A DNA stretch of 64,000 nt from Candidatus Omnitrophota bacterium. GTDB lineage: Bacteria > Omnitrophota > Gorgyraeia > Aquiviventales > Aquiviventaceae. Within the stretch, counting starts at the first letter, position 1. Every line of letters begins with the position of its first letter. A model generated the notes under the pieces. The model was not told the origin of the DNA. It ran no database searches and saw nothing but the letters and a program-made list of their open reading frames with translations. The translations under genes and the position numbers were made by a program. Positions 5,749 through 34,601 of this stretch are shown one piece after another. The stretch is from NCBI GenBank assembly GCA_023247255.1, contig JAHFGV010000010.1, positions 2,830 to 66,829 on the forward strand, in the 5' to 3' direction.

Positions 5749-6354
5749 GTGAGGACAGCCCTAGAACCTTCCCCAACCAAAGAGAAGCTCCTCGACGCCG
5801 CCCAGCGGCTGATGCTGGCCAAAGGCTTTGTCGCCACCACGGTGGATGATATCTGTGAGGCAGCCGAGGTGACGAAGGGCAGTTTCTTCCATTACTTTGA
5901 GAGCAAGGATCAGTTAGGTCGGGAGGTCCTGAAGCGCTTCTGTGCGTCTGGAGAGAAGATACACCGGGCATTGTGCGGCAGTGAGACGGATCCGCTCAAG
6001 CGAGTCTACGCCTATATTGACAATACGATCAAGATGTCCAAAGATCCGTCCATGAGCAAAGGCTGCCTGCTTGGACTGTTCTCGCAGGAGCTCTGCGACA
6101 CCAACCCACAGATCCGCGCCGCCTGCAAGAAGGGTTTTGACGACTGGGCAAAAGGCTTTGGGCAAGAGGTAGCGAAGGCGAAGGCAGCATACGCCTCACG
6201 AGCCCAGTTTAACCCTCAAGAACTTGCGGAACATCTGATTGCCGTGATGGAAGGGTCCATGATCCTGGGCAAGGTTCGGCATGACAGGTTGATTGTGGGG
6301 AAGAACCTGACTCATTTTAAGGCCTACGTCAAGAGCCTGTTCGAGCGCGCGTAA
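5749..6354 (+). CDS. TetR/AcrR family transcriptional regulator
   Basis: N-terminal HTH LLDAAQRLMLAKGFVATTVDDICEAAEVTKGSFFHYFESKDQL. GTG start at 5749. A paralogue with about 70% N-terminal identity lies at 63426. Confidence 0.85.
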   Translation: MRTALEPSPTKEKLLDAAQRLMLAKGFVATTVDDICEAAEVTKGSFFHYFESKDQLGREVLKRFCASGEKIHRALCGSETDPLKRVYAYIDNTIKMSKDPSMSKGCLLGLFSQELCDTNPQIRAACKKGFDDWAKGFGQEVAKAKAAYASRAQFNPQELAEHLIAVMEGSMILGKVRHDRLIVGKNLTHFKAYVKSLFERA

Positions 6355-9741: not shown

Positions 9742-10599
9742 TTAAACAGGCCGCACAGCCTGTGCGAGCATCGGGAAGAACAGCGACGACAACGCGTGCC
9801 GCTTCGAGTAGCGGTAAGCGAACTCGTTCACGTAGTGCTGCAAATACTTCGGAGAGACGGCGTGATACGTCCCGCTGAGGCTCCGCTTGAGTTGACTCCA
9901 AAAGCCCTCAATGGTGTTCGTATGCACCATGCCACGTACATATGTTCCCGACGAGTGGTTCACCGTACGGTGCGGGTAGCCCTTACGTGTTTTGCGATAG
10001 GTCTTGAATTCATCCGTCATCAAGGCTGTGCCTGGCTTAATATGCTGCTCGATAAAGGGACGCACGGTCTCCGCCGACAGGTTGCCAACAACACTCGCCG
10101 CAATACGTCCCTGCCGCTGGACAGCGCCCAACACGATGCTTTTCCCTGTGGCTCCGCGTCCTCGCTTGCCACGCGCCACACCGCCCACATAGGTATCATC
10201 CATTTCCACCGTCTTGGACAATGGATAGTTGGACTGTTTGAACAGCAAACGAATCTGTTTTGCCATCCGCCACGCCGTTTTATAGGTCACGCCAAGTTGT
10301 CGCTGAAGCTCCTTCGCCGACACGCCATTCTTCGAGTTGGCGAACAAGTAAATGGCATAGAACCAACTCTTGAGCGGCGTTTCCGATTTATGAAAGATTG
10401 TATCGGCCAACGGGTGCAGTTGGTAGCCGCACGATTGACACGCATAGCATTTGCGGTCGGTGACGCGATGAAACTTCGTGCGCGTGTGGCATGAAGGACA
10501 CCTGCTCACTTGTCCATACCGATGCTTGAAAATAGTTTCGAGGCACACATCATCCGTTGCGTACTGCTCGTTAAATTGTTTAATCGTGAACTTTTCCAT
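9742..10599 (-). CDS. IS1595-family (ISXO2-like) DDE transposase
   Basis: N-terminal zinc-ribbon (CPSCHTRTKFHRV...CYACQSCGYQ) followed by TIFHKSETPLKSWFYAIYLFANSKNGVSAKELQRQLGVTYKTAWRMAKQIR, characteristic of IS1595 transposases. Confidence 0.85.
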   Translation of the reverse strand: MEKFTIKQFNEQYATDDVCLETIFKHRYGQVSRCPSCHTRTKFHRVTDRKCYACQSCGYQLHPLADTIFHKSETPLKSWFYAIYLFANSKNGVSAKELQRQLGVTYKTAWRMAKQIRLLFKQSNYPLSKTVEMDDTYVGGVARGKRGRGATGKSIVLGAVQRQGRIAASVVGNLSAETVRPFIEQHIKPGTALMTDEFKTYRKTRKGYPHRTVNHSSGTYVRGMVHTNTIEGFWSQLKRSLSGTYHAVSPKYLQHYVNEFAYRYSKRHALSSLFFPMLAQAVRPV

Positions 10600-13096: not shown

Positions 13097-14359
13097 TTAC
13101 GGGATATACACCCCTCCGGGAGCTGTGTCTGCTGGACTCGTGGCTGTGTGGTCATGCCGCGTTCCATCACTGTGCACGTGGATCGTGTGCGTATGCTCCT
13201 CAGGCGTGAAGTCATTGTTGTGATCCGCTAAGTGGATCGCTGTTTCATAGCGCTCGACGATTTGCTGCTGTTGGTTATCGTAGTTCTGATTCTCCACAGT
13301 AGCAGGGGGCTGATACTGCTCGGCCATTTCCCGGTACTGCTCCAGTAATTCGGGACTGACATTCTGGCCTTCAGCGGCTTCCCATTGAGCGAAGGCTTCC
13401 ATTGGGCTCTGGAACTCGTATTCCATAGGTCCTGAGCCGAATCCTTCCATGGGGCCTGGTCCACCAAACCCTTCCATAGGTCCTGAGCCGTAGCCCTCAA
13501 AAGTCATTCCTTGAGGAGGGCCTCCATCTCCCTGAGCATTGGGGCCAAAGACTTCGTAGCCGGGGTGTGAGGCCATAAATTCCTGAGAATTTGCCATATA
13601 GTCTTTGGCCATCTGGAGCTGCTCCGGAGTCATCTGACCCGATGAGACCATCTGCTCCATCTGATCGAGGCTGGGCATTCCTCCGGGTCCTGCTCCTGGG
13701 TGGCCTAACTCCCCACCCGGCCCAGGACCTCCCATAACCCCTCCGGGACCCATCATCTCCATTTCGCCGCCGGACCATCGGGCGAATTCAAACCGGGCGC
13801 GCTCGACATACTCGGCTGGGGCTCCGCGAGCGACCATATCCGACTCCCACTCGTGAAACATGCCTTCGGCATGAGCGACCATTTCGGCAGAGGGAACATA
13901 CCGCTCCCCACTTTCAAAGGCGAGCATGCACCGTTCTCCCTCGCGAATGGACAGTTCCATCTCACGGGCGGCCTGTGGATCTGTAGCACGCAGGTTTTCC
14001 AACTGCTCCCGCATCTGGCCTTGGACACGGTTAAACTCTTCACGGGCGGCCTCGCGTACCTCCGTTGGAATCACCGTTGATAGATCCACCCCTTCGCGTT
14101 GGAGACTAGCGACTTCTTGCGTCACTGCCGCACGCTCGCGAGGATCAAGCACCGTAGCCTCGGCTACGTTACGACACAACTGAGCTAACTCCGGATCATT
14201 CGCCACCTCAGGATCCGCGGCAATCAACGCTTCGACAGCGGCGTAAAGAGCCGGATCCACCGTCTCCAACTGCGCCCAGGCTACCGGAGACATTTGGAAG
14301 GACAATGCGACTGCTAAAAGTACCCTCTGTCCCAATCGAATCTTTTTGCTGCACATCAT
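13097..14359 (-). CDS. Secreted low-complexity protein with Gly/Pro/Met repeats (GPMEGFG) and His-rich C-terminus; paralogue of 14433-15449
   Basis: Signal peptide ending VAWAQ. Shares the block DP(E/Q)xAREME with the upstream paralogue. MxxM-rich and His-rich (HTHTIHVHSDGTRHDH). Confidence 0.6.
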   Translation of the reverse strand: MMCSKKIRLGQRVLLAVALSFQMSPVAWAQLETVDPALYAAVEALIAADPEVANDPELAQLCRNVAEATVLDPRERAAVTQEVASLQREGVDLSTVIPTEVREAAREEFNRVQGQMREQLENLRATDPQAAREMELSIREGERCMLAFESGERYVPSAEMVAHAEGMFHEWESDMVARGAPAEYVERARFEFARWSGGEMEMMGPGGVMGGPGPGGELGHPGAGPGGMPSLDQMEQMVSSGQMTPEQLQMAKDYMANSQEFMASHPGYEVFGPNAQGDGGPPQGMTFEGYGSGPMEGFGGPGPMEGFGSGPMEYEFQSPMEAFAQWEAAEGQNVSPELLEQYREMAEQYQPPATVENQNYDNQQQQIVERYETAIHLADHNNDFTPEEHTHTIHVHSDGTRHDHTATSPADTAPGGVYIP

Positions 14360-14432: not shown

Positions 14433-15449
14433 CTAGGGTTGTGGAGGGGCTTGATACTCCTGCTGGGGCAATTCCGCTTGAGAAGGAGGCTCCATGGGTC
14501 CAGGCATTTCATGTTCCGCTGGTTCATTTTGGGGAGCCTGGTACTCATGGGTCGGTGATTCAAATTCATGAGTCGATGATTCGTATTCATGCGTGGGAGC
14601 TTCCGCTTCAAAGGAGCGGTCCATGGATTCAAAGGCGCGTTCACGCTCAATGACCTCAGGCCCTGAGTGATATTCGTTCTCGCGGCCTTCGAAATACCGC
14701 TCGCTAGTACCCATCTCCCGATCAAAACCCTCATGCATCATCTCCGGACGATCCTCTGGGCTATCCCCTTCATGCCCGAAGAAACGCTCCATCTGTTCTC
14801 GGGCTTCCGGAGACATCTGTTCCCATGAGCGCTCACCACCTGGGTGAGATTCCATTCCTAGCCCTTCGCGAAAACCCTCACCATTCATCATTCGACCTTC
14901 AGCAGAACCCCACTCACGCCCTTCATTAGGCTCGATCCCATAGTCTCGAAGCACATCGAACACCTTCTCTCTGGCTTGATCCGGTGAGATCTGCCCTCCT
15001 TCAAACTGACGGCGGACATCTTCCATCCGAGGATCGGATTGAACCTGCATGAAGAGCCGGTCACGCTCGGAAAGATTCGTGTTATCGCCTCCCAACGGGG
15101 TAGAGCCCATAAACCCTTGCGAGCGAGGAACGTTGCTGCTACTCGAAACATCAGTGGGAGGTGCACCTAGAGACAAGCCTGTTTCCGGAGCCTCAAGACT
15201 CGGCGGGCTCAACTCGCCCGTATTCAATAATTCCAATTGAGCTTCCATTTCTCTGGCGAGCTCGGGGTCTGTCTGTCTTGTGTCTTCAATGGCTTGCAGA
15301 ATGTGCTCCCGTGTCGTCGGGGCTACCTCTGTCTGCGCGGCTTCCACCGTTCCTTCATCATCCGCGGCCCAGGCCAGCGGAGAAGTGACTAGCGTGATTG
15401 CCACTGCCAGTAGGGCAATGGACGCTGTCGCAGAGCTTGCGATTCTCAT
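14433..15449 (-). CDS. Secreted acidic Met/His/Glu-rich low-complexity protein; paralogue of 13097-14359
   Basis: Signal peptide ending LAWAADDEG. DPELAREMEAQLE block. Repeats THEYES/THEFES/THEYQ. Met-rich segments. Confidence 0.6.
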   Translation of the reverse strand: MRIASSATASIALLAVAITLVTSPLAWAADDEGTVEAAQTEVAPTTREHILQAIEDTRQTDPELAREMEAQLELLNTGELSPPSLEAPETGLSLGAPPTDVSSSSNVPRSQGFMGSTPLGGDNTNLSERDRLFMQVQSDPRMEDVRRQFEGGQISPDQAREKVFDVLRDYGIEPNEGREWGSAEGRMMNGEGFREGLGMESHPGGERSWEQMSPEAREQMERFFGHEGDSPEDRPEMMHEGFDREMGTSERYFEGRENEYHSGPEVIERERAFESMDRSFEAEAPTHEYESSTHEFESPTHEYQAPQNEPAEHEMPGPMEPPSQAELPQQEYQAPPQP

Positions 15450-15508: not shown

Positions 15509-17363
15509 TCACTCAGGGTTTGGCGCTTCGGATTCCGCTTCTGACCCAGAGGTCTCTTGTTCATGTGGACTGGACTCTTGTGAAGATTCATTTTCAGGAG
15601 CAACATTATCAGGCTCTTCCGATGACACTGATTCTGATGAAGGAAGTTCGCTGGGCTCCGCATCCACTTCTGGAGCAGTCGCTTCGGTCGCAGTTTCTAG
15701 CTCCATCTCCGTGTCCTGTTCAGCACTCGATTCAGGTTCTGACCCTGCCATTTCGGAACTCCCTTGAGACTCTCCTAAGACCGTCCCAGCGTCAGACCCT
15801 GATGTCTCCTGCATGCCTGCAGCGGCTCCGCCTGTATCTGCGTCCGATTCTCCGAAGAGGGAGAATGATTCTGGGCTGTTGCCGTAGTCGTAATCGTTTT
15901 TCAATATCTCACTGGCTTGCCCCTCAGCGGTTGCTTCGGAGATTTGACCGCTCTCAACCTGCAGACCGAGTTCGATGAGACGCGGGTCGGACTCTAACGC
16001 CGCTTCAACGGCACTACCCGTCACGTCCCAGCTGCTCGCATCCGCATCTTGGCGATTCCCTATCCCGTCGCCATCGATGTCCGCATCGGCGGTGTTGGGC
16101 GTGCCATCGCCATCGATGTCCGCATCCACAAGATTCAACTGCCCATCGCCGTCGACGTCAGGATCCACGGCATTCAGTCGCCCATCGCCATCCACATCAG
16201 CATCTTGGACGTTGGGCGTGCCATCGCCATCGATGTCCGTATCCTGGGTGTTGAGCTTCCCATCTCCATCCACATCCATGTCTTGAGAGTTCACTTGGCC
16301 GTCGCCATCGACATCGGCATCGACTGTATTGGCCTTGCCGTCGCCATCGATGTCCGCATCCTGGCCATTGAGCGTGCCATCCCCATCGACATCGGGATCG
16401 ACCGTATTGGTGGCGCCATCCCCATCGACATCGGTATCCATAGAGTTGAGTTGCCCATCCCCATCGACATCGGCATCTTGGGCGTTCGCGGTGCCATCCC
16501 CATCAATGTCCTGGTCTTTGGCGTTCATGACCCGATCCCCGTCTACATCTAGGTCCTGGGCGTTGGGCGTACTGTCCCCGTCGGCATCCAGGTCTTGAGC
16601 ATTGGGCGTCCCATCCCCATCCCCATCGGTATCGGCGGCGTTGAGGGTTCCATCGCCGTCGATATCCGGATCCTTGATATTCGGAATCCCATCGTGGTCG
16701 GTGTCCGCCGTAGCATCTCCTGCGGTGAGCGCTTCGCCCCCTGGCGCATTCTCCATCCCATCCCCATCGACATCGAGATCGGACGTATTAGGCGTGCCGT
16801 CCCCATCACTATCGGCATCGGTTCTATTAGCCTGCCCGTCTCCATCGATATCCGCATCTTGGGCATTCAAGGTCCCGTCGCCATCTACGTCCAGATCGAG
16901 TGCGTTCGCGGTACCATCTCCATCCACATCGGTATCGGCGGCGTTCAACTGGCCATCGCCATCGATGTCTTTATCATCGGTGTTTTGAATCCCGTCTCCA
17001 TCCACATCGGTATCGGCGGCGTTCAACTGGCCATCGCCATCGATGTCTTTATCATCGGTGTTTTGAATCCCGTCTCCATCCACGTCGGTATCGGAGACGT
17101 TCAACTGGCCATCCCCATCGACATCGGGGTCGGCTGTGTTCGGGATGCCATCATGGTCGATATCGAGTGCCGCGGCTGCTGCGGGCGATTGGGCTTCACT
17201 GCTTGGGCTAAGATCAAGCGCTGCCGGGACCGCTATCTGAGCCGCTTCAGCGGTCTGATCATCCGCGGCCCACACCGAAGGACCAGCAATGAGAAGGGAA
17301 CCCAGACTCGCTGCGATGAGAGTCACTGCTAACCACCGATCCATTAATCGTCTACGATACATG
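15509..17363 (-). CDS. Secreted calcium-binding protein built of thrombospondin type 3-like repeats (DxDxDGxxN) with an acidic Ser/Glu-rich C-terminal tail
   Basis: Over 25 tandem DVDGDGxxNxxD repeats. Signal peptide LIAASLGSLLIAGPSVWA. Start ATG at 17363 is preceded by GGAGGTGG. A perfect 78-bp tandem duplication lies at 16919-17074. Confidence 0.8.
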
Positions 17364-17380: not shown

Positions 17381-17414
17381 AAAAAAACCCTTGCCATTGA
17401 AAGCAAGGGTTCGC
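17381..17414 (-). terminator. Intrinsic terminator / expression-platform hairpin (AACCCTTGC-TTTCAATG-GCAAGGGTT followed by TTTTTTT) 20 nt upstream of the RBS of the TSP3-repeat gene
   Basis: Read on the minus strand: a GC-rich 9-bp stem followed by a 7-T run. It is preceded by a second hairpin GATGCGCC-GTAA-GGCGCATC (17416-17435). Confidence 0.7.
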
Positions 17415-17433
17415 TGATGCGCCTTACGGCGCA

Positions 17434-17540
17434 TCTATCCGGTAACTGGCTGCCATCCCTAGCTTCCCGCTAGGTTGAAGGCCCTATAGCTTTGCGACCC
17501 ATTCTTTCGAATGGTGTGCCTTTTTCAGATCGATTGAGTT
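17434..17540 (-). ncRNA. Cyclic-di-GMP-I (GEMM) riboswitch aptamer
   Basis: Minus-strand sequence GGCACACCATTCGAAAGAATGGGTCGCAAAGC...CAGTTACCGGATAG closely matches the Vibrio cholerae Vc2 GEMM-I core GGCAAACCAUUCGAAAGAGUGGGACGCAAAGC...GGUUACCGAUGG. This includes the GAAA tetraloop hairpin and the ACGCAAAGC junction. A candidate sigma70 promoter (TTGACA-N18-TATTTT) lies at ~17575-17605 on the minus strand. Confidence 0.75.
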
Positions 17541-17932
17541 GTCAAATGCAAGGACACGGCTTTTGATTAAAAATACCTGACGCCGCTCAAAAATGTCAAG
17601 ACTCCAATGTGAAGACTCCATTAAAAAATTTGTCGCAACCAATATAGAAATGTCATAGTCGTTGTTCTTGGATGGGGGGGGTGGGGGGAAGGGTGGATAA
17701 GTTGTGAACTTGTGCACAACGGCCGTTGGGCGCTTGGAGTCGTCGCGTTTTTGGCCTCTGGCAGGCTCCAGGATTGACGATCGTTACCGAGGGAGGCAAT
17801 CGAGGTATCCCCGTTGCGAGCGTGCGAGGCGGTTTGGCGTCGCAACAGGGCGAAGTAGAACGGATCCATTAGGGGTCAGGCATTCACTATGTTAATTATT
17901 GACTCAGCGTATCTGTTGGGTTAAGGTAAGCC

Positions 17933-18865
17933 ATGGCTCGAGCTCCAAGAATCAACCTGGCTGGCGGACTATTCCATGTGACTCAACGGGGGAATAATCG
18001 CCAGCCCATTTTCTTAGATGATAAAGATCGGCGCGCTTTTCTTGAGCGTGTGGCTCGGTTCCGAGGACCTTTTAAATGTTCTGTGCATGCCTACTGTTTG
18101 ATGGATAATCACGTACACCTGCTTTTGGAGACTCAGGAGGCCAATCTTTCTGCTTTTGCCCAGCGATTGTTTGCCTCCTACACATTATGGTTCAACCGCA
18201 AGCACGAGCAGGTGGGACACGTTTTCCAGGGGCGGTTTAAATCGATTCTTGTAGAGAAGGATGCGTATTTGCTCGAGTTGTCACGATACATTCATCTCAA
18301 TCCAGTTAAGGCAAAACTTGTAGTGAAGCCAGAGGAATATCGTTGGTCAAGCATGCGCAGTTACCTGGGGATGGAAGGTGTCGAGAGCTGGGTTACCACA
18401 CGAGACGTACTGGCATACTTTACGGGTAGACGCCAGGAATATTTGGCATTTGTCTATGGCAGGATGGGGGTAGAGGACCCAGGATTTATAACTCGGGGCG
18501 ATTGCTTAGGTTCTCACGCGTTCATTGAAGAAGTTCAGACACAGTTCAGAAATGGAGAACATCAGAGGACGCAGGCTCTCGATAGGAAAACGGAGGATGC
18601 GGCCAAGTTAGCAAAGGTGAGTCGATTGTTAGGCATGGATGAGACGACGATGAGGAAGAAGCATGCGAAGGGTAGGGAGTCCGCTCGGGCGCGAGCCATG
18701 CTAGGATATGTGCTGCGCAGGACAACATCGATGACGCATGCAGAGATTGGGCGAGTCTTGGGGGGAGTGTCTGCGGCTGGCGTTGCCTCGCAAGCAGAGA
18801 AGGTGGCGCGCTTGCCAAAGTTACGAGACAAGGCAGACAGAATAATTAAAATAACAAATGCCTGA
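17933..18865 (+). CDS. Y1 HUH (IS200-like, Transposase_17 family) transposase fused to a C-terminal DnaA-C-like HTH domain
   Basis: HUH motif HVHLLLE and catalytic-Tyr region RYIHLNPVKAKLV...YRWSSMRSY. C-terminal MLGYVLRRTTSMTHAEIGRVLGGVSAAGVASQAEKV resembles the DnaA domain IV HTH. Confidence 0.75.
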   Translation: MARAPRINLAGGLFHVTQRGNNRQPIFLDDKDRRAFLERVARFRGPFKCSVHAYCLMDNHVHLLLETQEANLSAFAQRLFASYTLWFNRKHEQVGHVFQGRFKSILVEKDAYLLELSRYIHLNPVKAKLVVKPEEYRWSSMRSYLGMEGVESWVTTRDVLAYFTGRRQEYLAFVYGRMGVEDPGFITRGDCLGSHAFIEEVQTQFRNGEHQRTQALDRKTEDAAKLAKVSRLLGMDETTMRKKHAKGRESARARAMLGYVLRRTTSMTHAEIGRVLGGVSAAGVASQAEKVARLPKLRDKADRIIKITNA

Positions 18866-30545: not shown

Positions 30546-33500
30546 ATGCCGCAGGAGGTCAGGACGGTTGGCAAGAGCTCGGTAGGTTCTGGAGGGGCTG
30601 TGATCCTGAAAGACACGCTCAGGTTGGCATCAGAAAAGGGATCGGATTCTAGTCCCCAAAAAGGATTGACCGTTCCCAGACGCTGGACGCGCTCGACCGT
30701 CCATCCTTATGATGAAGTCACCTGGGAGCTTCGAGTTGCCTCCATCACGAATGAGAAAGGCGAGGTGGTGTTTGAACAATCCGATGTCGAGGTCCCCTCA
30801 TTCTGGTCTCAGCTGGCGACTAATGTCGTGGTATCCAAATACTTTCGCGGCCAATTGGGGACCGCCCAGCGGGAGCGCAGCGTCAAGCAACTCATCGGAC
30901 GGGTGTCCCAAACGATTGCCCGGTGGGGGCTCAAGGACGGATACTTCGCCGGCTCTGAAGACGCCGAGGCTTTTGAAGATGAGCTGACCTATCTTTTATT
31001 ACACCAGTATACCGCTTTCAACTCTCCCGTGTGGTTCAACGTCGGTGTGGAAAAAGACCGTTCCCCTCAATGCAGCGCGTGCTTCATCCTCTCGGTCGAG
31101 GACCATATGGAGTCTATCCTCGAATGGTACCGCAATGAGGGGATGATTTTCAAATACGGCTCCGGGGCCGGGCTCAACGTTTCTCCCATTCGCTCGTCTC
31201 GTGAGCGCCTCGGGGGTGGGGGCATACCCTCAGGCCCTGTCTCTTTCATGCGGGCAGCCGATGCCTCAGCCGGGGTGATCAAATCCGGTGGAAAAACCAG
31301 GCGCGCGGCAAAGATGGTAGTCCTCAACGCCGATCATCCGGACATCCAGACATTCATTCTCTGCAAATGGAAGGAAGAGGAAAAGGCGCACAAGCTGATC
31401 GATCTGGGCTATGACGCTTCCATCGATGGGGAGGCCTATACCTCGGTGTTCTTCCAGAATGCCAACAATTCGGTGCGCGTCACGGATGAGCTTATGCGTC
31501 GGGCGCTGGCCGATGAGGACTGGGAGCTTAAGGCGGTGACGAGTGGCGAGATCATCGAGCGCGTGAAGGCGAAAGATCTTTTACGGCTCATTGCTGAGGC
31601 GACCTGGCACTGCGGCGATCCGGGCATGCAGTTTGACACGACCATCAACGACTGGCACACCTGCCCGAACACCGGCCGGATCAATGCCAGTAATCCGTGT
31701 TTTGCAGGGGATGCCCTTGTCTATACAAACAAGGGCTTAATTCCATTCAAAGAGCTGCATGAACGTGTCCAATTAGACGAAACCTTCCAGGTCTTCACGC
31801 ACGATGCCACTCACCCCGAGCGGCCAGCTACGACCATCAGCGCCACAAAGCCCATTCGTGTGATGTGCACGGGGACCAACGACGTCTACCAGCTTCGGTT
31901 TTCAAACGGAGTCGAAGTCAAGGCGACCACCAATCACCGCTTCTTCACGAAGAACCGCGGGATGGTCGCGGCAGAAGAGTTGCAGCCAGCAGACGAGGTG
32001 ATGTTGCTCGATCAATCCGTCGAACTCCTGTCCGCCTCGCTGGAGATTGATCTTGACGATGCGGCAATCTTCGCCAGCGGCTGGGGGGGTCGCGACACCA
32101 AAGACTACCAGTCTGTTCAACTGCCTCGGGTATGGGTGACGCCACTTGCGGAGTACCTGGGCTATCTTGTGGGTGATGGCAATGTAAGCGAGGCCAGCGA
32201 TGCGGAACATCGCCTGAGCAGCGTGTCAGTCGTGTTCGGGAAAGCTGCGGAAGCAGACGAGTTGCTGCCGCGTTTTGAGTCGCTGTTCGCTGACATGAGC
32301 GTCACGCACACGCAGACGGTCACAATGCCCAACGGTACCGTCCAATTTCGAGTCAATCGCACGCCGGTGGCGCGGTTCTTGAAACAACTGGGTGTGCAGG
32401 AGTGTGAGGCTCATGAAAAACGGGTTCCACACACAATCTTTCAGACTCCCGCGCACATCATCGCCGCGTTTCTGCGCGGACTCTTTACTGCGGATGGATG
32501 CGTGTATGAGGGTAAGACCAGTCGCTATGTCGGGCTCGCCAGTTCATCACAAGAGCTCCTTCGCCAGGTCCAACAACTCCTATTCACTTTCGGTATCCAG
32601 AGCCGAATCTACGCCACACGAGGCAGGCACGAATGCTTTCCTTATCAGAGAAAAGACGGCGAACGAGTCCTCTCTACCGGCCGCCAGTTGTATGATTTAA
32701 GGATCGCCGGTACCGCGATCGCTCGGTTCAAGGAACACGTCGGATTTCTGACGACTGAAAAACAGGCAAGACTCAATCGAGTCATCGGAGGGTACCCCTT
32801 TCGAGAGCCAAGAGATAGTACTCGCTTGGTGGCTAGGGAGCTTCTTGGCGAAGAATTGACTTATAACCTCACCGAGCCCAAGAATCACAGCTATGTTGTG
32901 AATGGGTGTATCGTTGCTAACTGTAGTGAATACATGCACTTAGATAACTCGGCGTGTAACCTCGCAAGCATCAACCTGCTGAAATTCATCGATGACGAAG
33001 GGAATTTCCTGATCGAGCCGTTCAAGCACGCCGTGCGCGTCATGACCATCGCCCAGGACATCATCGTTGATAATTCCTCGTATCCGACGGAGAAAATCAC
33101 GCGCAATGCCAAGGACTACCGGGAACTCGGCTTGGGCTACGCAAACCTGGGCGCTTTGTTGATGGCTCAAGGGCTTGCGTATGATTCTGAGGAAGGGCGT
33201 GCCTGGGCCGGGGCGATTACAGCGCTTTTGTGCGGCCATGCCTATGAGGTTTCCGGAGAGATCGCCCAGCGACTGGGGCCCTATGCCGGTTTTTCGAAAA
33301 ACCGCGAACCGCAACTGCACGTCCTACGCAAACATCGCGCTCAAGTGGATAAGATCAACCCACGCCTGGTTCCCCAGCCGCTCTTGCAGGCTGCCACGCG
33401 CGTCTGGGATGAGACGATCCGCCTGGGTGAGCAGAATGGCGTGCGCAACTCTCAGGTCACGGTACTCGCTCCTACCGGGACGATCGCGTTTCTTATGGAT

Positions 33501-34601
33501 TGTGACACGACCGGGGTTGAACCCGACATCGCTCTCGTTAAATATAAACGGCTCGTCGGTGGGGGGATGCTCAAGATCGTCAACCAAACCGTTCCACGGG
33601 CGCTTAAAAAACTGGGATACGCGCCGCAGGAAGTGGAGGCCATTGTCCGTCACATCGATGAGAAAGAAACGATTGAAGGGGCTGCGGGTCTTAAGCCGGA
33701 GCATCTGAGGAATTTTGACTGCGCTTTTCGTCCGGTGAACGGGACGCGGTCCATCCATTACATGGGGCACATTCGAATGATGGCTGCTGCCCAGCCTTTC
33801 ATCAGCGGGGCGATCTCCAAAACCGTCAACCTCCCCCAAGAAGCAACGGTTGAGGATATCTGCCAGGCCTACATCGAAGCCTGGCGTTTGGGCCTTAAGG
33901 CGATCGCTATTTACCGCGACGGCTCCAAACGCGTGCAGCCGCTCTCAACCGCTAAGACCGACAAATCGAAAGCGGCCGATTCGGCTAAAACCCCCACAGG
34001 GGTTCCTTATCGTCGCAGACTTTCCGATGAGAGACAGTCGATCACCCACAAGTTTTCCATCGGGGGTCATGAAGGTTACTTGACGGTGGGTCTGTTCGAA
34101 GACGGTACACCTGGGGAAATCTTCATCGTCATGTCGAAGGAAGGATCCACCCTTTCCGGCGTGATGGACTGTCTTGCCACGACGGTTTCATTGGCTCTTC
34201 AATATGGCGTGCCGCTTCAAGTTTTAGTCACCAAATTCAGCCATGTTCGTTTTGAGCCCTCAGGGGTGACGAATAACAGAGACATTCGATTTGCCAAATC
34301 GGTCATCGACTATATCTTCCGGTGGATGGCGCTGAAGTTTCTTCCGGAGGAACAGGCGCAACCATTCAAGGTGAGTCACGTTCCTGGTTCACAGCCTGGG
34401 AGTGGCTCTGCATCCGCTCAATCCGCACAGGCAGCTTCGCCCGCAGGAAGCAACTATCCCAACCCGATGGAGCATCAAGAACGCCTGACCTTCGTCGCTC
34501 AAGCGGACGCCCCCGTTTGTTCTGACTGCGGCTCGCTGATGGTCAGAAACGGCAACTGCTACAAGTGCCTGAATTGCGGGAGTACATCGGGATGTTCGTG
34601 A
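30546..34601 (+). CDS. nrdJ: Adenosylcobalamin-dependent (class II) ribonucleotide reductase NrdJ, interrupted in-frame by a 408-aa intein
   Basis: Class II RNR motifs, C-terminal zinc ribbon (CSDCGSLMVRNGNCYKCLNCG), extein junction NASNP|CSEY reconstituting the NPC(G/S)E active-site motif. The intein runs from codon 385 to 792. Confidence 0.85.
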   Translation: MPQEVRTVGKSSVGSGGAVILKDTLRLASEKGSDSSPQKGLTVPRRWTRSTVHPYDEVTWELRVASITNEKGEVVFEQSDVEVPSFWSQLATNVVVSKYFRGQLGTAQRERSVKQLIGRVSQTIARWGLKDGYFAGSEDAEAFEDELTYLLLHQYTAFNSPVWFNVGVEKDRSPQCSACFILSVEDHMESILEWYRNEGMIFKYGSGAGLNVSPIRSSRERLGGGGIPSGPVSFMRAADASAGVIKSGGKTRRAAKMVVLNADHPDIQTFILCKWKEEEKAHKLIDLGYDASIDGEAYTSVFFQNANNSVRVTDELMRRALADEDWELKAVTSGEIIERVKAKDLLRLIAEATWHCGDPGMQFDTTINDWHTCPNTGRINASNPCFAGDALVYTNKGLIPFKELHERVQLDETFQVFTHDATHPERPATTISATKPIRVMCTGTNDVYQLRFSNGVEVKATTNHRFFTKNRGMVAAEELQPADEVMLLDQSVELLSASLEIDLDDAAIFASGWGGRDTKDYQSVQLPRVWVTPLAEYLGYLVGDGNVSEASDAEHRLSSVSVVFGKAAEADELLPRFESLFADMSVTHTQTVTMPNGTVQFRVNRTPVARFLKQLGVQECEAHEKRVPHTIFQTPAHIIAAFLRGLFTADGCVYEGKTSRYVGLASSSQELLRQVQQLLFTFGIQSRIYATRGRHECFPYQRKDGERVLSTGRQLYDLRIAGTAIARFKEHVGFLTTEKQARLNRVIGGYPFREPRDSTRLVARELLGEELTYNLTEPKNHSYVVNGCIVANCSEYMHLDNSACNLASINLLKFIDDEGNFLIEPFKHAVRVMTIAQDIIVDNSSYPTEKITRNAKDYRELGLGYANLGALLMAQGLAYDSEEGRAWAGAITALLCGHAYEVSGEIAQRLGPYAGFSKNREPQLHVLRKHRAQVDKINPRLVPQPLLQAATRVWDETIRLGEQNGVRNSQVTVLAPTGTIAFLMDCDTTGVEPDIALVKYKRLVGGGMLKIVNQTVPRALKKLGYAPQEVEAIVRHIDEKETIEGAAGLKPEHLRNFDCAFRPVNGTRSIHYMGHIRMMAAAQPFISGAISKTVNLPQEATVEDICQAYIEAWRLGLKAIAIYRDGSKRVQPLSTAKTDKSKAADSAKTPTGVPYRRRLSDERQSITHKFSIGGHEGYLTVGLFEDGTPGEIFIVMSKEGSTLSGVMDCLATTVSLALQYGVPLQVLVTKFSHVRFEPSGVTNNRDIRFAKSVIDYIFRWMALKFLPEEQAQPFKVSHVPGSQPGSGSASAQSAQAASPAGSNYPNPMEHQERLTFVAQADAPVCSDCGSLMVRNGNCYKCLNCGSTSGCS
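31698..32921 (+). other. Intein (Hint domain with LAGLIDADG homing-endonuclease core) inserted at the catalytic Cys of NrdJ
   Basis: N-terminal splice junction CFAGDALVYT (Cys1). Two LAGLIDADG-like motifs, LGYLVGDGNV and AAFLRGLFTADGCV. C-terminal junction ...VVNGCIVAN|CSEY. Confidence 0.75.

Follow-up and report, generated by a model that had tools for sequence, protein, structure and literature searches.

A putative c-di-GMP-I riboswitch with an intrinsic terminator, probably an OFF switch, upstream of a predicted secreted-protein operon in Candidatus Omnitrophota

The stretch analysed here (the window) comprises 64,000 nucleotides (nt) of contig JAHFGV010000010.1 of a Candidatus Omnitrophota bacterium (GCA_023247255.1, positions 2,830 to 66,829, forward strand). 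Its subject is the 5′ leader of three minus-strand genes for proteins with signal peptides, in which an aptamer of the cyclic dimeric guanosine monophosphate (c-di-GMP) class I, or GEMM-I, is followed by a short hairpin (hairpin M) and an intrinsic terminator. A preliminary description, made from the letters alone, had proposed c-di-GMP-dependent transcription attenuation of these genes and left the direction of the switch open. Features are given below from promoter to third gene, all on the minus strand; nucleotide equivalents are those of the Vibrio cholerae aptamer Vc2, and invariance refers to alignment A1, a MAFFT alignment of 21 of 24 orthologous leaders.

17570–17599: sigma-70-type promoter TTGACA-N18-TATTTT (consensus scan, 10 of 12 matches).
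Near 17563: predicted transcription start site, placed from the promoter, leaving a 5′ leader of about 33 nt before the aptamer.
17437–17530: c-di-GMP-I (GEMM-I) aptamer (cmscan; minimum free energy, MFE, fold; RNAalifold and pair counts in 21 orthologues).
17530–17526 with 17441–17437: aptamer helix P1 (AUCUG/CGGAU).
17519–17518 with 17495–17494: aptamer helix P1a.
17514–17499: aptamer hairpin P1b, GAAA loop at 17508–17505.
17491–17444: aptamer helix P2, with an extra distal hairpin.
17520: G20 equivalent, last unpaired G of junction J1/2, ligand contact (cmscan alignment; invariant in A1).
17493: A47 equivalent, first A after ACGC (cmscan alignment; invariant in A1).
17442: C92 equivalent, unpaired C immediately before the P1 3′ strand, ligand contact (cmscan alignment; invariant in A1).
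17494–17500: aptamer strand of a predicted antiterminator, GGGUCGC (Vc2 nt 40–46; 3′ strands of P1b and P1a; MFE conformer before the terminator 3′ arm is made, with comparative support).
17416–17435: hairpin M, GATGCGCC-GTAA-GGCGCATC (RNA GAUGCGCC/GGCGCAUC, 8-bp stem, GUAA loop), 1 nt after P1 (MFE fold).
17407–17414: platform strand of the predicted antiterminator, GCGAACCC, with one bulged A; its CCC makes the first terminator-stem pairs (register test, RNAduplex, stepwise folding).
17381–17412: intrinsic terminator, stem-loop 17412–17385 and U7 17387–17381 (terminator scan).
17373–17366: ribosome-binding site (RBS) GGAGGTGG (RNA GGAGGUGG).
17362–17360: ATG of gene 1.
15509–17362: gene 1, 617 amino acids, signal peptide, 28 DxDxDG Ca-binding-type repeats, acidic tail (translation, repeat count).
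14433–15449: gene 2, 338 amino acids, signal peptide, acidic (translation).
13097–14359: gene 3, 420 amino acids, signal peptide, His-rich C-terminus (translation).

The aptamer thus lies in sense orientation in a 5′ leader, together with an expression platform. The parts named in the preliminary description, namely the aptamer core GGCACACCATTCGAAAGAATGGGTCGCAAAGC...CAGTTACCGGATAG, the GTAA hairpin (17435–17416) and the promoter (17599–17570), were all found; several of its measurements had to be revised. Between the −10 box and P1 there are 39 nt, not ~60 nt, and the U-tract ends 7 nt, not ~20 nt, before the RBS. A terminator with T7 is indeed present; its stem, described as a 9-bp GC stem, has 8 bp (CCCUUGCU/GGCAAGGG), or 11 bp with A-U/G-U extensions, five G-C pairs and a 6-nt loop, and is directly followed by the T7 as in Rho-independent terminators. 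When the 176-nt leader is folded, P1, P1a/P1b, P2, hairpin M and the terminator form together in the MFE structure (z = −4.5 against shuffled sequences). The promoter arrangement (TTGAC-N~17-TCAGGTAnnnT) and the start region (GGAGGUG-N5-7-AUG) recur in orthologous leaders.

The DNA around the promoter has features of its own. A 14-nt tandem duplication (AATGTCAAGACTCC / AATGTGAAGACTCC, plus strand; 17592–17619) overlaps the −35 box and is partly repeated in inverted orientation ~130 nt upstream (17734–17753); orthologous promoters lack it, and it may represent an operator or the scar of a duplication. A C-rich tract with a C8 run, CCACCCTTCCCCCCACCCCCCCCATCC, lies ~75–100 nt upstream of the promoter (17670–17695, minus strand).

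The identity of the aptamer is carried by a full-length match to Rfam clan CL00126 (17437–17529, minus strand; model positions 1–80 of 80; 60.0 bits, E 1.1e-11), the sole Rfam match across the window. The preliminary description had expected model RF01051; the clan match is significant, and the top-scoring model is RF03167 (c-di-GMP-I-GGC), at 1 bit above its gathering score of 59. One more clan member, most likely RF01051 (gathering score 35), passes its own gathering score and is masked by clan competition. A 35-nt degenerate core pattern matched once in the window and in none of 100 shuffles. In the MFE fold the P1-closed junction, the GNRA-capped P1a/P1b and P2 are all present, and the cmscan alignment places the G20 and C92 equivalents as had been proposed. 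In Vc2, c-di-GMP is contacted by G20, A47 and C92 (PMC4744006; PMC5888326), and an interhelical Watson-Crick pair, C44-G83, is described as universally conserved (PMC4744006); the equivalents of the latter (C at 17496; the bulged G at 17450, in GGC-AG-CC) are present here and invariant in 21 of 21 orthologues, which concerns their presence, the tertiary pair itself being predicted. Because G, A and C occupy the three contact positions, the ligand call stays c-di-GMP, and this RNA would be expected to bind it. Judged by sequence and predicted fold, the element is a riboswitch of the c-di-GMP-I (GEMM-I) class.

Vc2 itself (RF01051) has the same P1, P1a/P1b with GAAA tetraloop and P2, and shares the G20, A47 and C92 contacts and the C44-G83 equivalents; P1b of the window (CCAUUCGAAAGA(A/G)UGG) is also nearly identical to the string given for Vc2 in the preliminary description. 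The two differ at position 43 and its partner (U and C in the window, A and A in Vc2), in an A at the G19 position of the window, in the internal-loop/receptor sequence and extra distal hairpin of P2, and in the platform, hairpin M plus intrinsic terminator being unrelated to that of Vc2. The U/C variant at position 43 also occurs in aptamers of Woeseiaceae and Steroidobacteraceae. At the tetraloop-receptor position, the P2 internal loop reads CCUUCAA / GAUGG, as against a CUAAG / UAUG-like motif in most genomic matches; the CCUUCAA / GAUGG type is also found in two Paenibacillus aptamers (L002, L057).

The base in GGCA[A/C]ACC (17516) covaries with position 43 in GGG[N]CGC (17497), A going with A or G and C with U or C. 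This rule holds in every sequence inspected, including loci L007, L015, L055, L078, L097, L105 and L120, and fits a non-Watson-Crick pair within the internal loop of P1a/P1b.

Conservation of the whole leader was followed through the homologues of gene 3. There are 67 of these, six with organism names, five being Candidatus Omnitrophica/Omnitrophota metagenome-assembled genomes (MAGs) and one labelled 'archaeon'. Eight homologous loci on longer contigs were taken by way of them, and all eight have a c-di-GMP-I match before the operon (54–76 bits, RF01051). Further leaders were recovered from metagenomes by means of a pattern taken from the aptamer 3′ half; in all, 24 leaders (Omnitrophota MAGs and metagenomes) are built up identically, with promoter, aptamer, GNRA-capped hairpin M, CCCUUGC...GCAAGGG with a U-run, GGAGGUG, and a signal-peptide protein in that order. 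The unit of aptamer, terminator and secreted-protein genes recognised in the preliminary description is therefore kept in 24 orthologous leaders.

On A1, the structure predicted by RNAalifold contains 19 compensatory pairs and comprises P1a, P1b, three P2 segments, hairpin M and the terminator; when the full structure including P1 is imposed, 91.5% of cells are paired and 24 pairs have changes on both sides, against 0 of 500 shuffles as good and at most 46% paired with partners slid by 1–3 columns. By element, P1b is 99% paired (4 compensatory pairs), P2 97–100%, P1 84% (outer pair A-U/G-U/G-C), the terminator stem 92.9% (4 compensatory pairs), and the inner 4 pairs of hairpin M 93%, all four with compensatory changes and beneath a conserved GUAA loop. 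Pairing and compensatory change on this scale, set against the controls, argue for a functional, selected unit and not for a chance match or a relic.

Some relatives carry additions to this plan. A ~42-nt two-hairpin module (CCCGCC..GGCGGG + UCCGCC..GGCGGA; e.g., L124, ~5914–5957) is inserted within their aptamers, either in J1/2 just before the G20 equivalent (L124, L126, L131, L140, L146, L151, L135) or in the P1b 5′ strand (L157, L183, L170, L192), with the hairpins in opposite order at the two sites; the module is not repeated in high copy among the loci fetched, and the window is without it. A second, different c-di-GMP-I aptamer, with a GUAA/GUGA loop, a long P2 and no separate terminator, precedes an additional secreted-protein gene just upstream of the orthologous operon in two loci (L122, 4723–4830; L129, 4299–4412). 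Tandem aptamers occur in three more (L161, L187, L136).

How the expression platform is laid out offers a clue to which way the switch works. No nucleotide is shared by aptamer and terminator; hairpin M and a short linker lie between them, and the MFE structure accommodates aptamer, hairpin M and terminator together. Such compatibility is that of an OFF switch. In stepwise folding without the terminator 3′ arm, the MFE conformer pairs GGGUCGC (17500–17494) with GCGAACCC (17414–17407), a helix lengthened in the window by GAAAG x CUUUC and CCAUU x AAUGG. This predicted antiterminator beats the ligand-free aptamer fold by 1.6–5.1 kcal/mol before the terminator 3′ arm is complete and loses by 1.6–4.8 kcal/mol afterwards; within the folding model, such near-degeneracy of two folds is what a kinetically controlled switch requires.

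Comparison of the 24 leaders points the same way. Pairing reaches 80.4% in the register GGGNCGC x GCGN'CCC, compared with 39–61% at shifts of 1–3 nt; a perfect 7-bp helix, with one bulge at most, is found in 12 of the 24, and at least six pairs in 17. In RNAduplex comparisons with shuffled platforms the mean z is −1.6, and 10 of the leaders reach p<0.05. The combinations U:A, G:C, C:G and A:U are all seen at N (Vc2 nt 43) and N', which are complementary in 15 leaders where 7.6 are expected (permutation p 1e-4, for related sequences and uncorrected for kinship).

That kinship is one of several points that weigh against an OFF switch built on this helix. The antiterminator of the window itself reaches just p 0.05 against shuffles and requires a 1-nt bulge; nine of the 24 leaders are without the GGGNCGC x GCGN'CCC helix; and a swap test on whole aptamer/platform segments gave p 0.06, a less clear outcome than that of the narrower test on the register itself. 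Within the model, the antiterminator must invade a stable GAAA-capped hairpin and not the usual P1 strand, and the conserved hairpin M overlaps neither switching partner and plays no part. An alternative register with the terminator arm, CGCAAAG x CUUUGCG, is available to L145 and L128, which are without the main helix, and to L122 and L124, which have it.

Other candidate structures were tried and set aside. Antiterminators through the P1 3′ strand or the P2 3′ strand (GGCAG x UUGCC) have five weak pairs at most and are inconsistent across leaders (by eye); pairing of the leader 5′ segment GUGUCCUU with AAGGCAC of J1/2 is not conserved in orthologues; and a PyrR binding site over hairpin M and the terminator is sub-threshold (30.8 bits, gathering score 54).

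Since the sole covarying alternative helix uses aptamer nucleotides that the ligand would lock, an OFF switch, in which c-di-GMP promotes termination, is the direction predicted from the sequences, and we consider it the probable one. Transcription would start from TTGACA-N18-TATTTT, and the nascent RNA would fold into the GEMM-I aptamer, with contacts at 17520, 17493 and 17442. Without c-di-GMP, GGGUCGC would be free to pair with GCGAACCC, occupying the first three terminator-stem pairs, and RNA polymerase would read through into the genes. With c-di-GMP, P1a and P1b would be locked, GCGAACCC would be left free, and the terminator (17412–17385 and U7) would form, so that transcription would end 7 nt before the RBS and high c-di-GMP would turn the operon OFF. 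Attenuation by c-di-GMP, as first proposed, thus stands as the best reading of the sequence. Taken as a whole, a canonical c-di-GMP class I riboswitch acting on termination in the OFF direction ahead of a three-gene operon is the account that we favour, with moderate confidence.

Precedents for class I riboswitches exist in both directions. Vc2 is reported as an off-switch (bioRxiv 10.1101/617340), and those of Clostridioides difficile 'generally function as off switches' (PMC6200980); among the latter, Cdi-1-2 precedes the calcium-binding putative adhesin CD630_27970 and Cdi-1-3 precedes flgB (PMC6200980). The C. difficile elements likewise have a class I aptamer in a 5′ leader, with negative control documented there and predicted here; they differ in belonging to another phylum and in preceding proteins that are apparently unrelated to those of the window (no shared Pfam family, no PDB relatives). 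Bc2 of Bacillus thuringiensis, upstream of the collagen adhesion protein gene cap, also combines a class I aptamer and a terminator before a secreted or surface adhesion-type protein; it is reported to relieve termination as c-di-GMP rises (ON; PMC4933901), whereas the layout of the window predicts OFF.

The strongest competitor has the same aptamer and terminator working as an ON switch, c-di-GMP favouring read-through by way of another structure, for example one involving hairpin M. Matrix genes and genes for secreted, adhesin-like proteins are often induced by c-di-GMP, with Bc2/cap as the class I example (PMC4933901), and this too speaks against an OFF switch here; one C. difficile class I riboswitch is positive (PMC6200980), the evidence for the antiterminator is moderate, and an ON switch could give hairpin M the role that it otherwise lacks. 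However, the terminator is compatible with the aptamer in the MFE structure, which leaves the ligand no obvious means of blocking it, hairpin M touches neither of the two, and the covarying helix consumes nucleotides that the ligand would hold. An ON switch is on this evidence rather unlikely.

Less probable still, and in our opinion improbable, is that a real aptamer acts here on translation, Rho-dependent termination or RNA stability, or is a decaying relic beside an insertion sequence (IS). In the full-length MFE structure a local hairpin partly sequesters the RBS, transposase genes lie on both sides of the locus, and the lexA that relatives have upstream is not there. Yet the RBS-sequestering hairpin is not conserved in orthologues, and for the same reason it was discarded as a switching element; the terminator stem and U-tract are kept with compensatory changes in 21 leaders, every core aptamer position is intact, and the promoter is intact and conserved.

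There remains the RF03167 label, which, if taken at its word, would make the RNA a GGC variant sensing a ligand other than c-di-GMP. The variant c-di-GMP-I-GGC is said to have been named by Weinberg et al. in 2017, and 'GGC' we take to stand for positions 20, 47 and 92, with G47 as the defining substitution, which agrees with the RF03167 consensus. Among the clan members RF03167 scores highest (60.0 bits against 59), and the P2 sequence of the window, GGGCC...GGCAGCC, resembles its consensus. Still, the margin over the gathering score is just 1 bit, and in the cmscan alignment the consensus ACGC-G-AAgC and the window UCGC-A-AAGC mismatch exactly at that G, the window having A47 (17493) where the variant has G47; the score alone would admit the RNA to the variant class and the base at position 47 keeps it out. 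All 124 matches to the common 5′ core listed in a genome-wide scan carry A47, the pattern having permitted A or G, and upon rescanning of 18 of these loci many A47 aptamers, from Paenibacillus, Gammaproteobacteria and Desulfosporosinus, were labelled RF03167 as well (65–76 bits). Orthologues of the window leader alternate between the RF01051 and RF03167 labels, and RF03167 yields lower E-values at similar bit scores. Since canonical A47 aptamers also receive the label, the RF03167 score does not discriminate, and automated annotation will over-call the GGC class through clan competition; position 47 has to be examined before such a label can count towards the variant class. A GGC variant with another ligand is accordingly very improbable. 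A cyclic AMP-GMP (c-AMP-GMP, GEMM-Ib) riboswitch, a variant class described in PMC7266159, would need adenine at position 20 (PMC6140456), and the window has G at 17520.

Downstream of the riboswitch, a scan of the gaps between genes 1 to 3 turned up nothing resembling a promoter or a minus-strand terminator, and we infer that the three form one operon, as had been proposed. Gene 1 was first described as a thrombospondin-type-3 repeat gene. It does contain the 28 DxDxDG motifs; its match to Pfam TSP_3 (PF02412; E 0.031, 14.4 bits) is below the cutoff of 25, and its partial match to NCBIfam throspo3_MtsC (4e-12) is far below the cutoff of that family, so that 'thrombospondin type 3' is by sequence a motif-level description only. 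Genes 2 and 3 had no Pfam, NCBIfam or PDB relatives in searches. Genes 1 and 2 share two collinear segments (E 2e-4 and 4e-4), one with the signal-peptide end and AADD.T.EAAQ, the other SDPR...GQIS...DYG, and in most relatives the riboswitch directly precedes a gene-2-type protein; gene 1 therefore looks like a lineage-specific paralogue of gene 2 with DxDxDG repeats inserted. The arrangement of riboswitch and repeat protein occurs in one other lineage (L151/L173).

Transposase genes bracket the operon (17933–18865, plus strand; 9742–10599, minus strand). One encodes an IS200-like Y1 transposase with a fused DnaA C-terminal helix-turn-helix domain and is located where relatives have VWA-PDZ-lexA; the other encodes a transposase of the IS1595 family. 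Elsewhere in the window, a gene for class II (B12-dependent) ribonucleotide reductase (30546–34601, plus strand) is split by an intein that bears a LAGLIDADG endonuclease domain.

Riboswitches of class c-di-GMP-I with terminators before secreted or adhesin-type proteins are already well known, and knowledge of riboswitch mechanisms is unchanged by the present one. To our knowledge, no class I riboswitch of C. difficile has been reported with a conserved GNRA-capped hairpin between aptamer and terminator or with an antiterminator invading P1a/P1b. No report of c-di-GMP-I riboswitches in Omnitrophota was found in a limited literature search, which is weak evidence of novelty. As a tentative possibility, Omnitrophota may have a lineage-specific c-di-GMP regulon of secreted acidic, probably Ca- or metal-binding proteins (the gene 2 and gene 3 families and the DxDxDG paralogues), served by an unusual platform with the P1a/P1b-invading antiterminator and the GNRA-capped hairpin; if so, the two-hairpin modules in J1/2 or P1b of the relatives' aptamers could add a second input. 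The antiterminator, hairpin M, the two-hairpin insertions and the secreted families under predicted c-di-GMP control may be worth further work. With this locus a largely uncultivated phylum gains a well-supported c-di-GMP riboswitch, and c-di-GMP signalling in Omnitrophota is tied to a conserved set of secreted proteins, which thereby obtain their first regulatory context.

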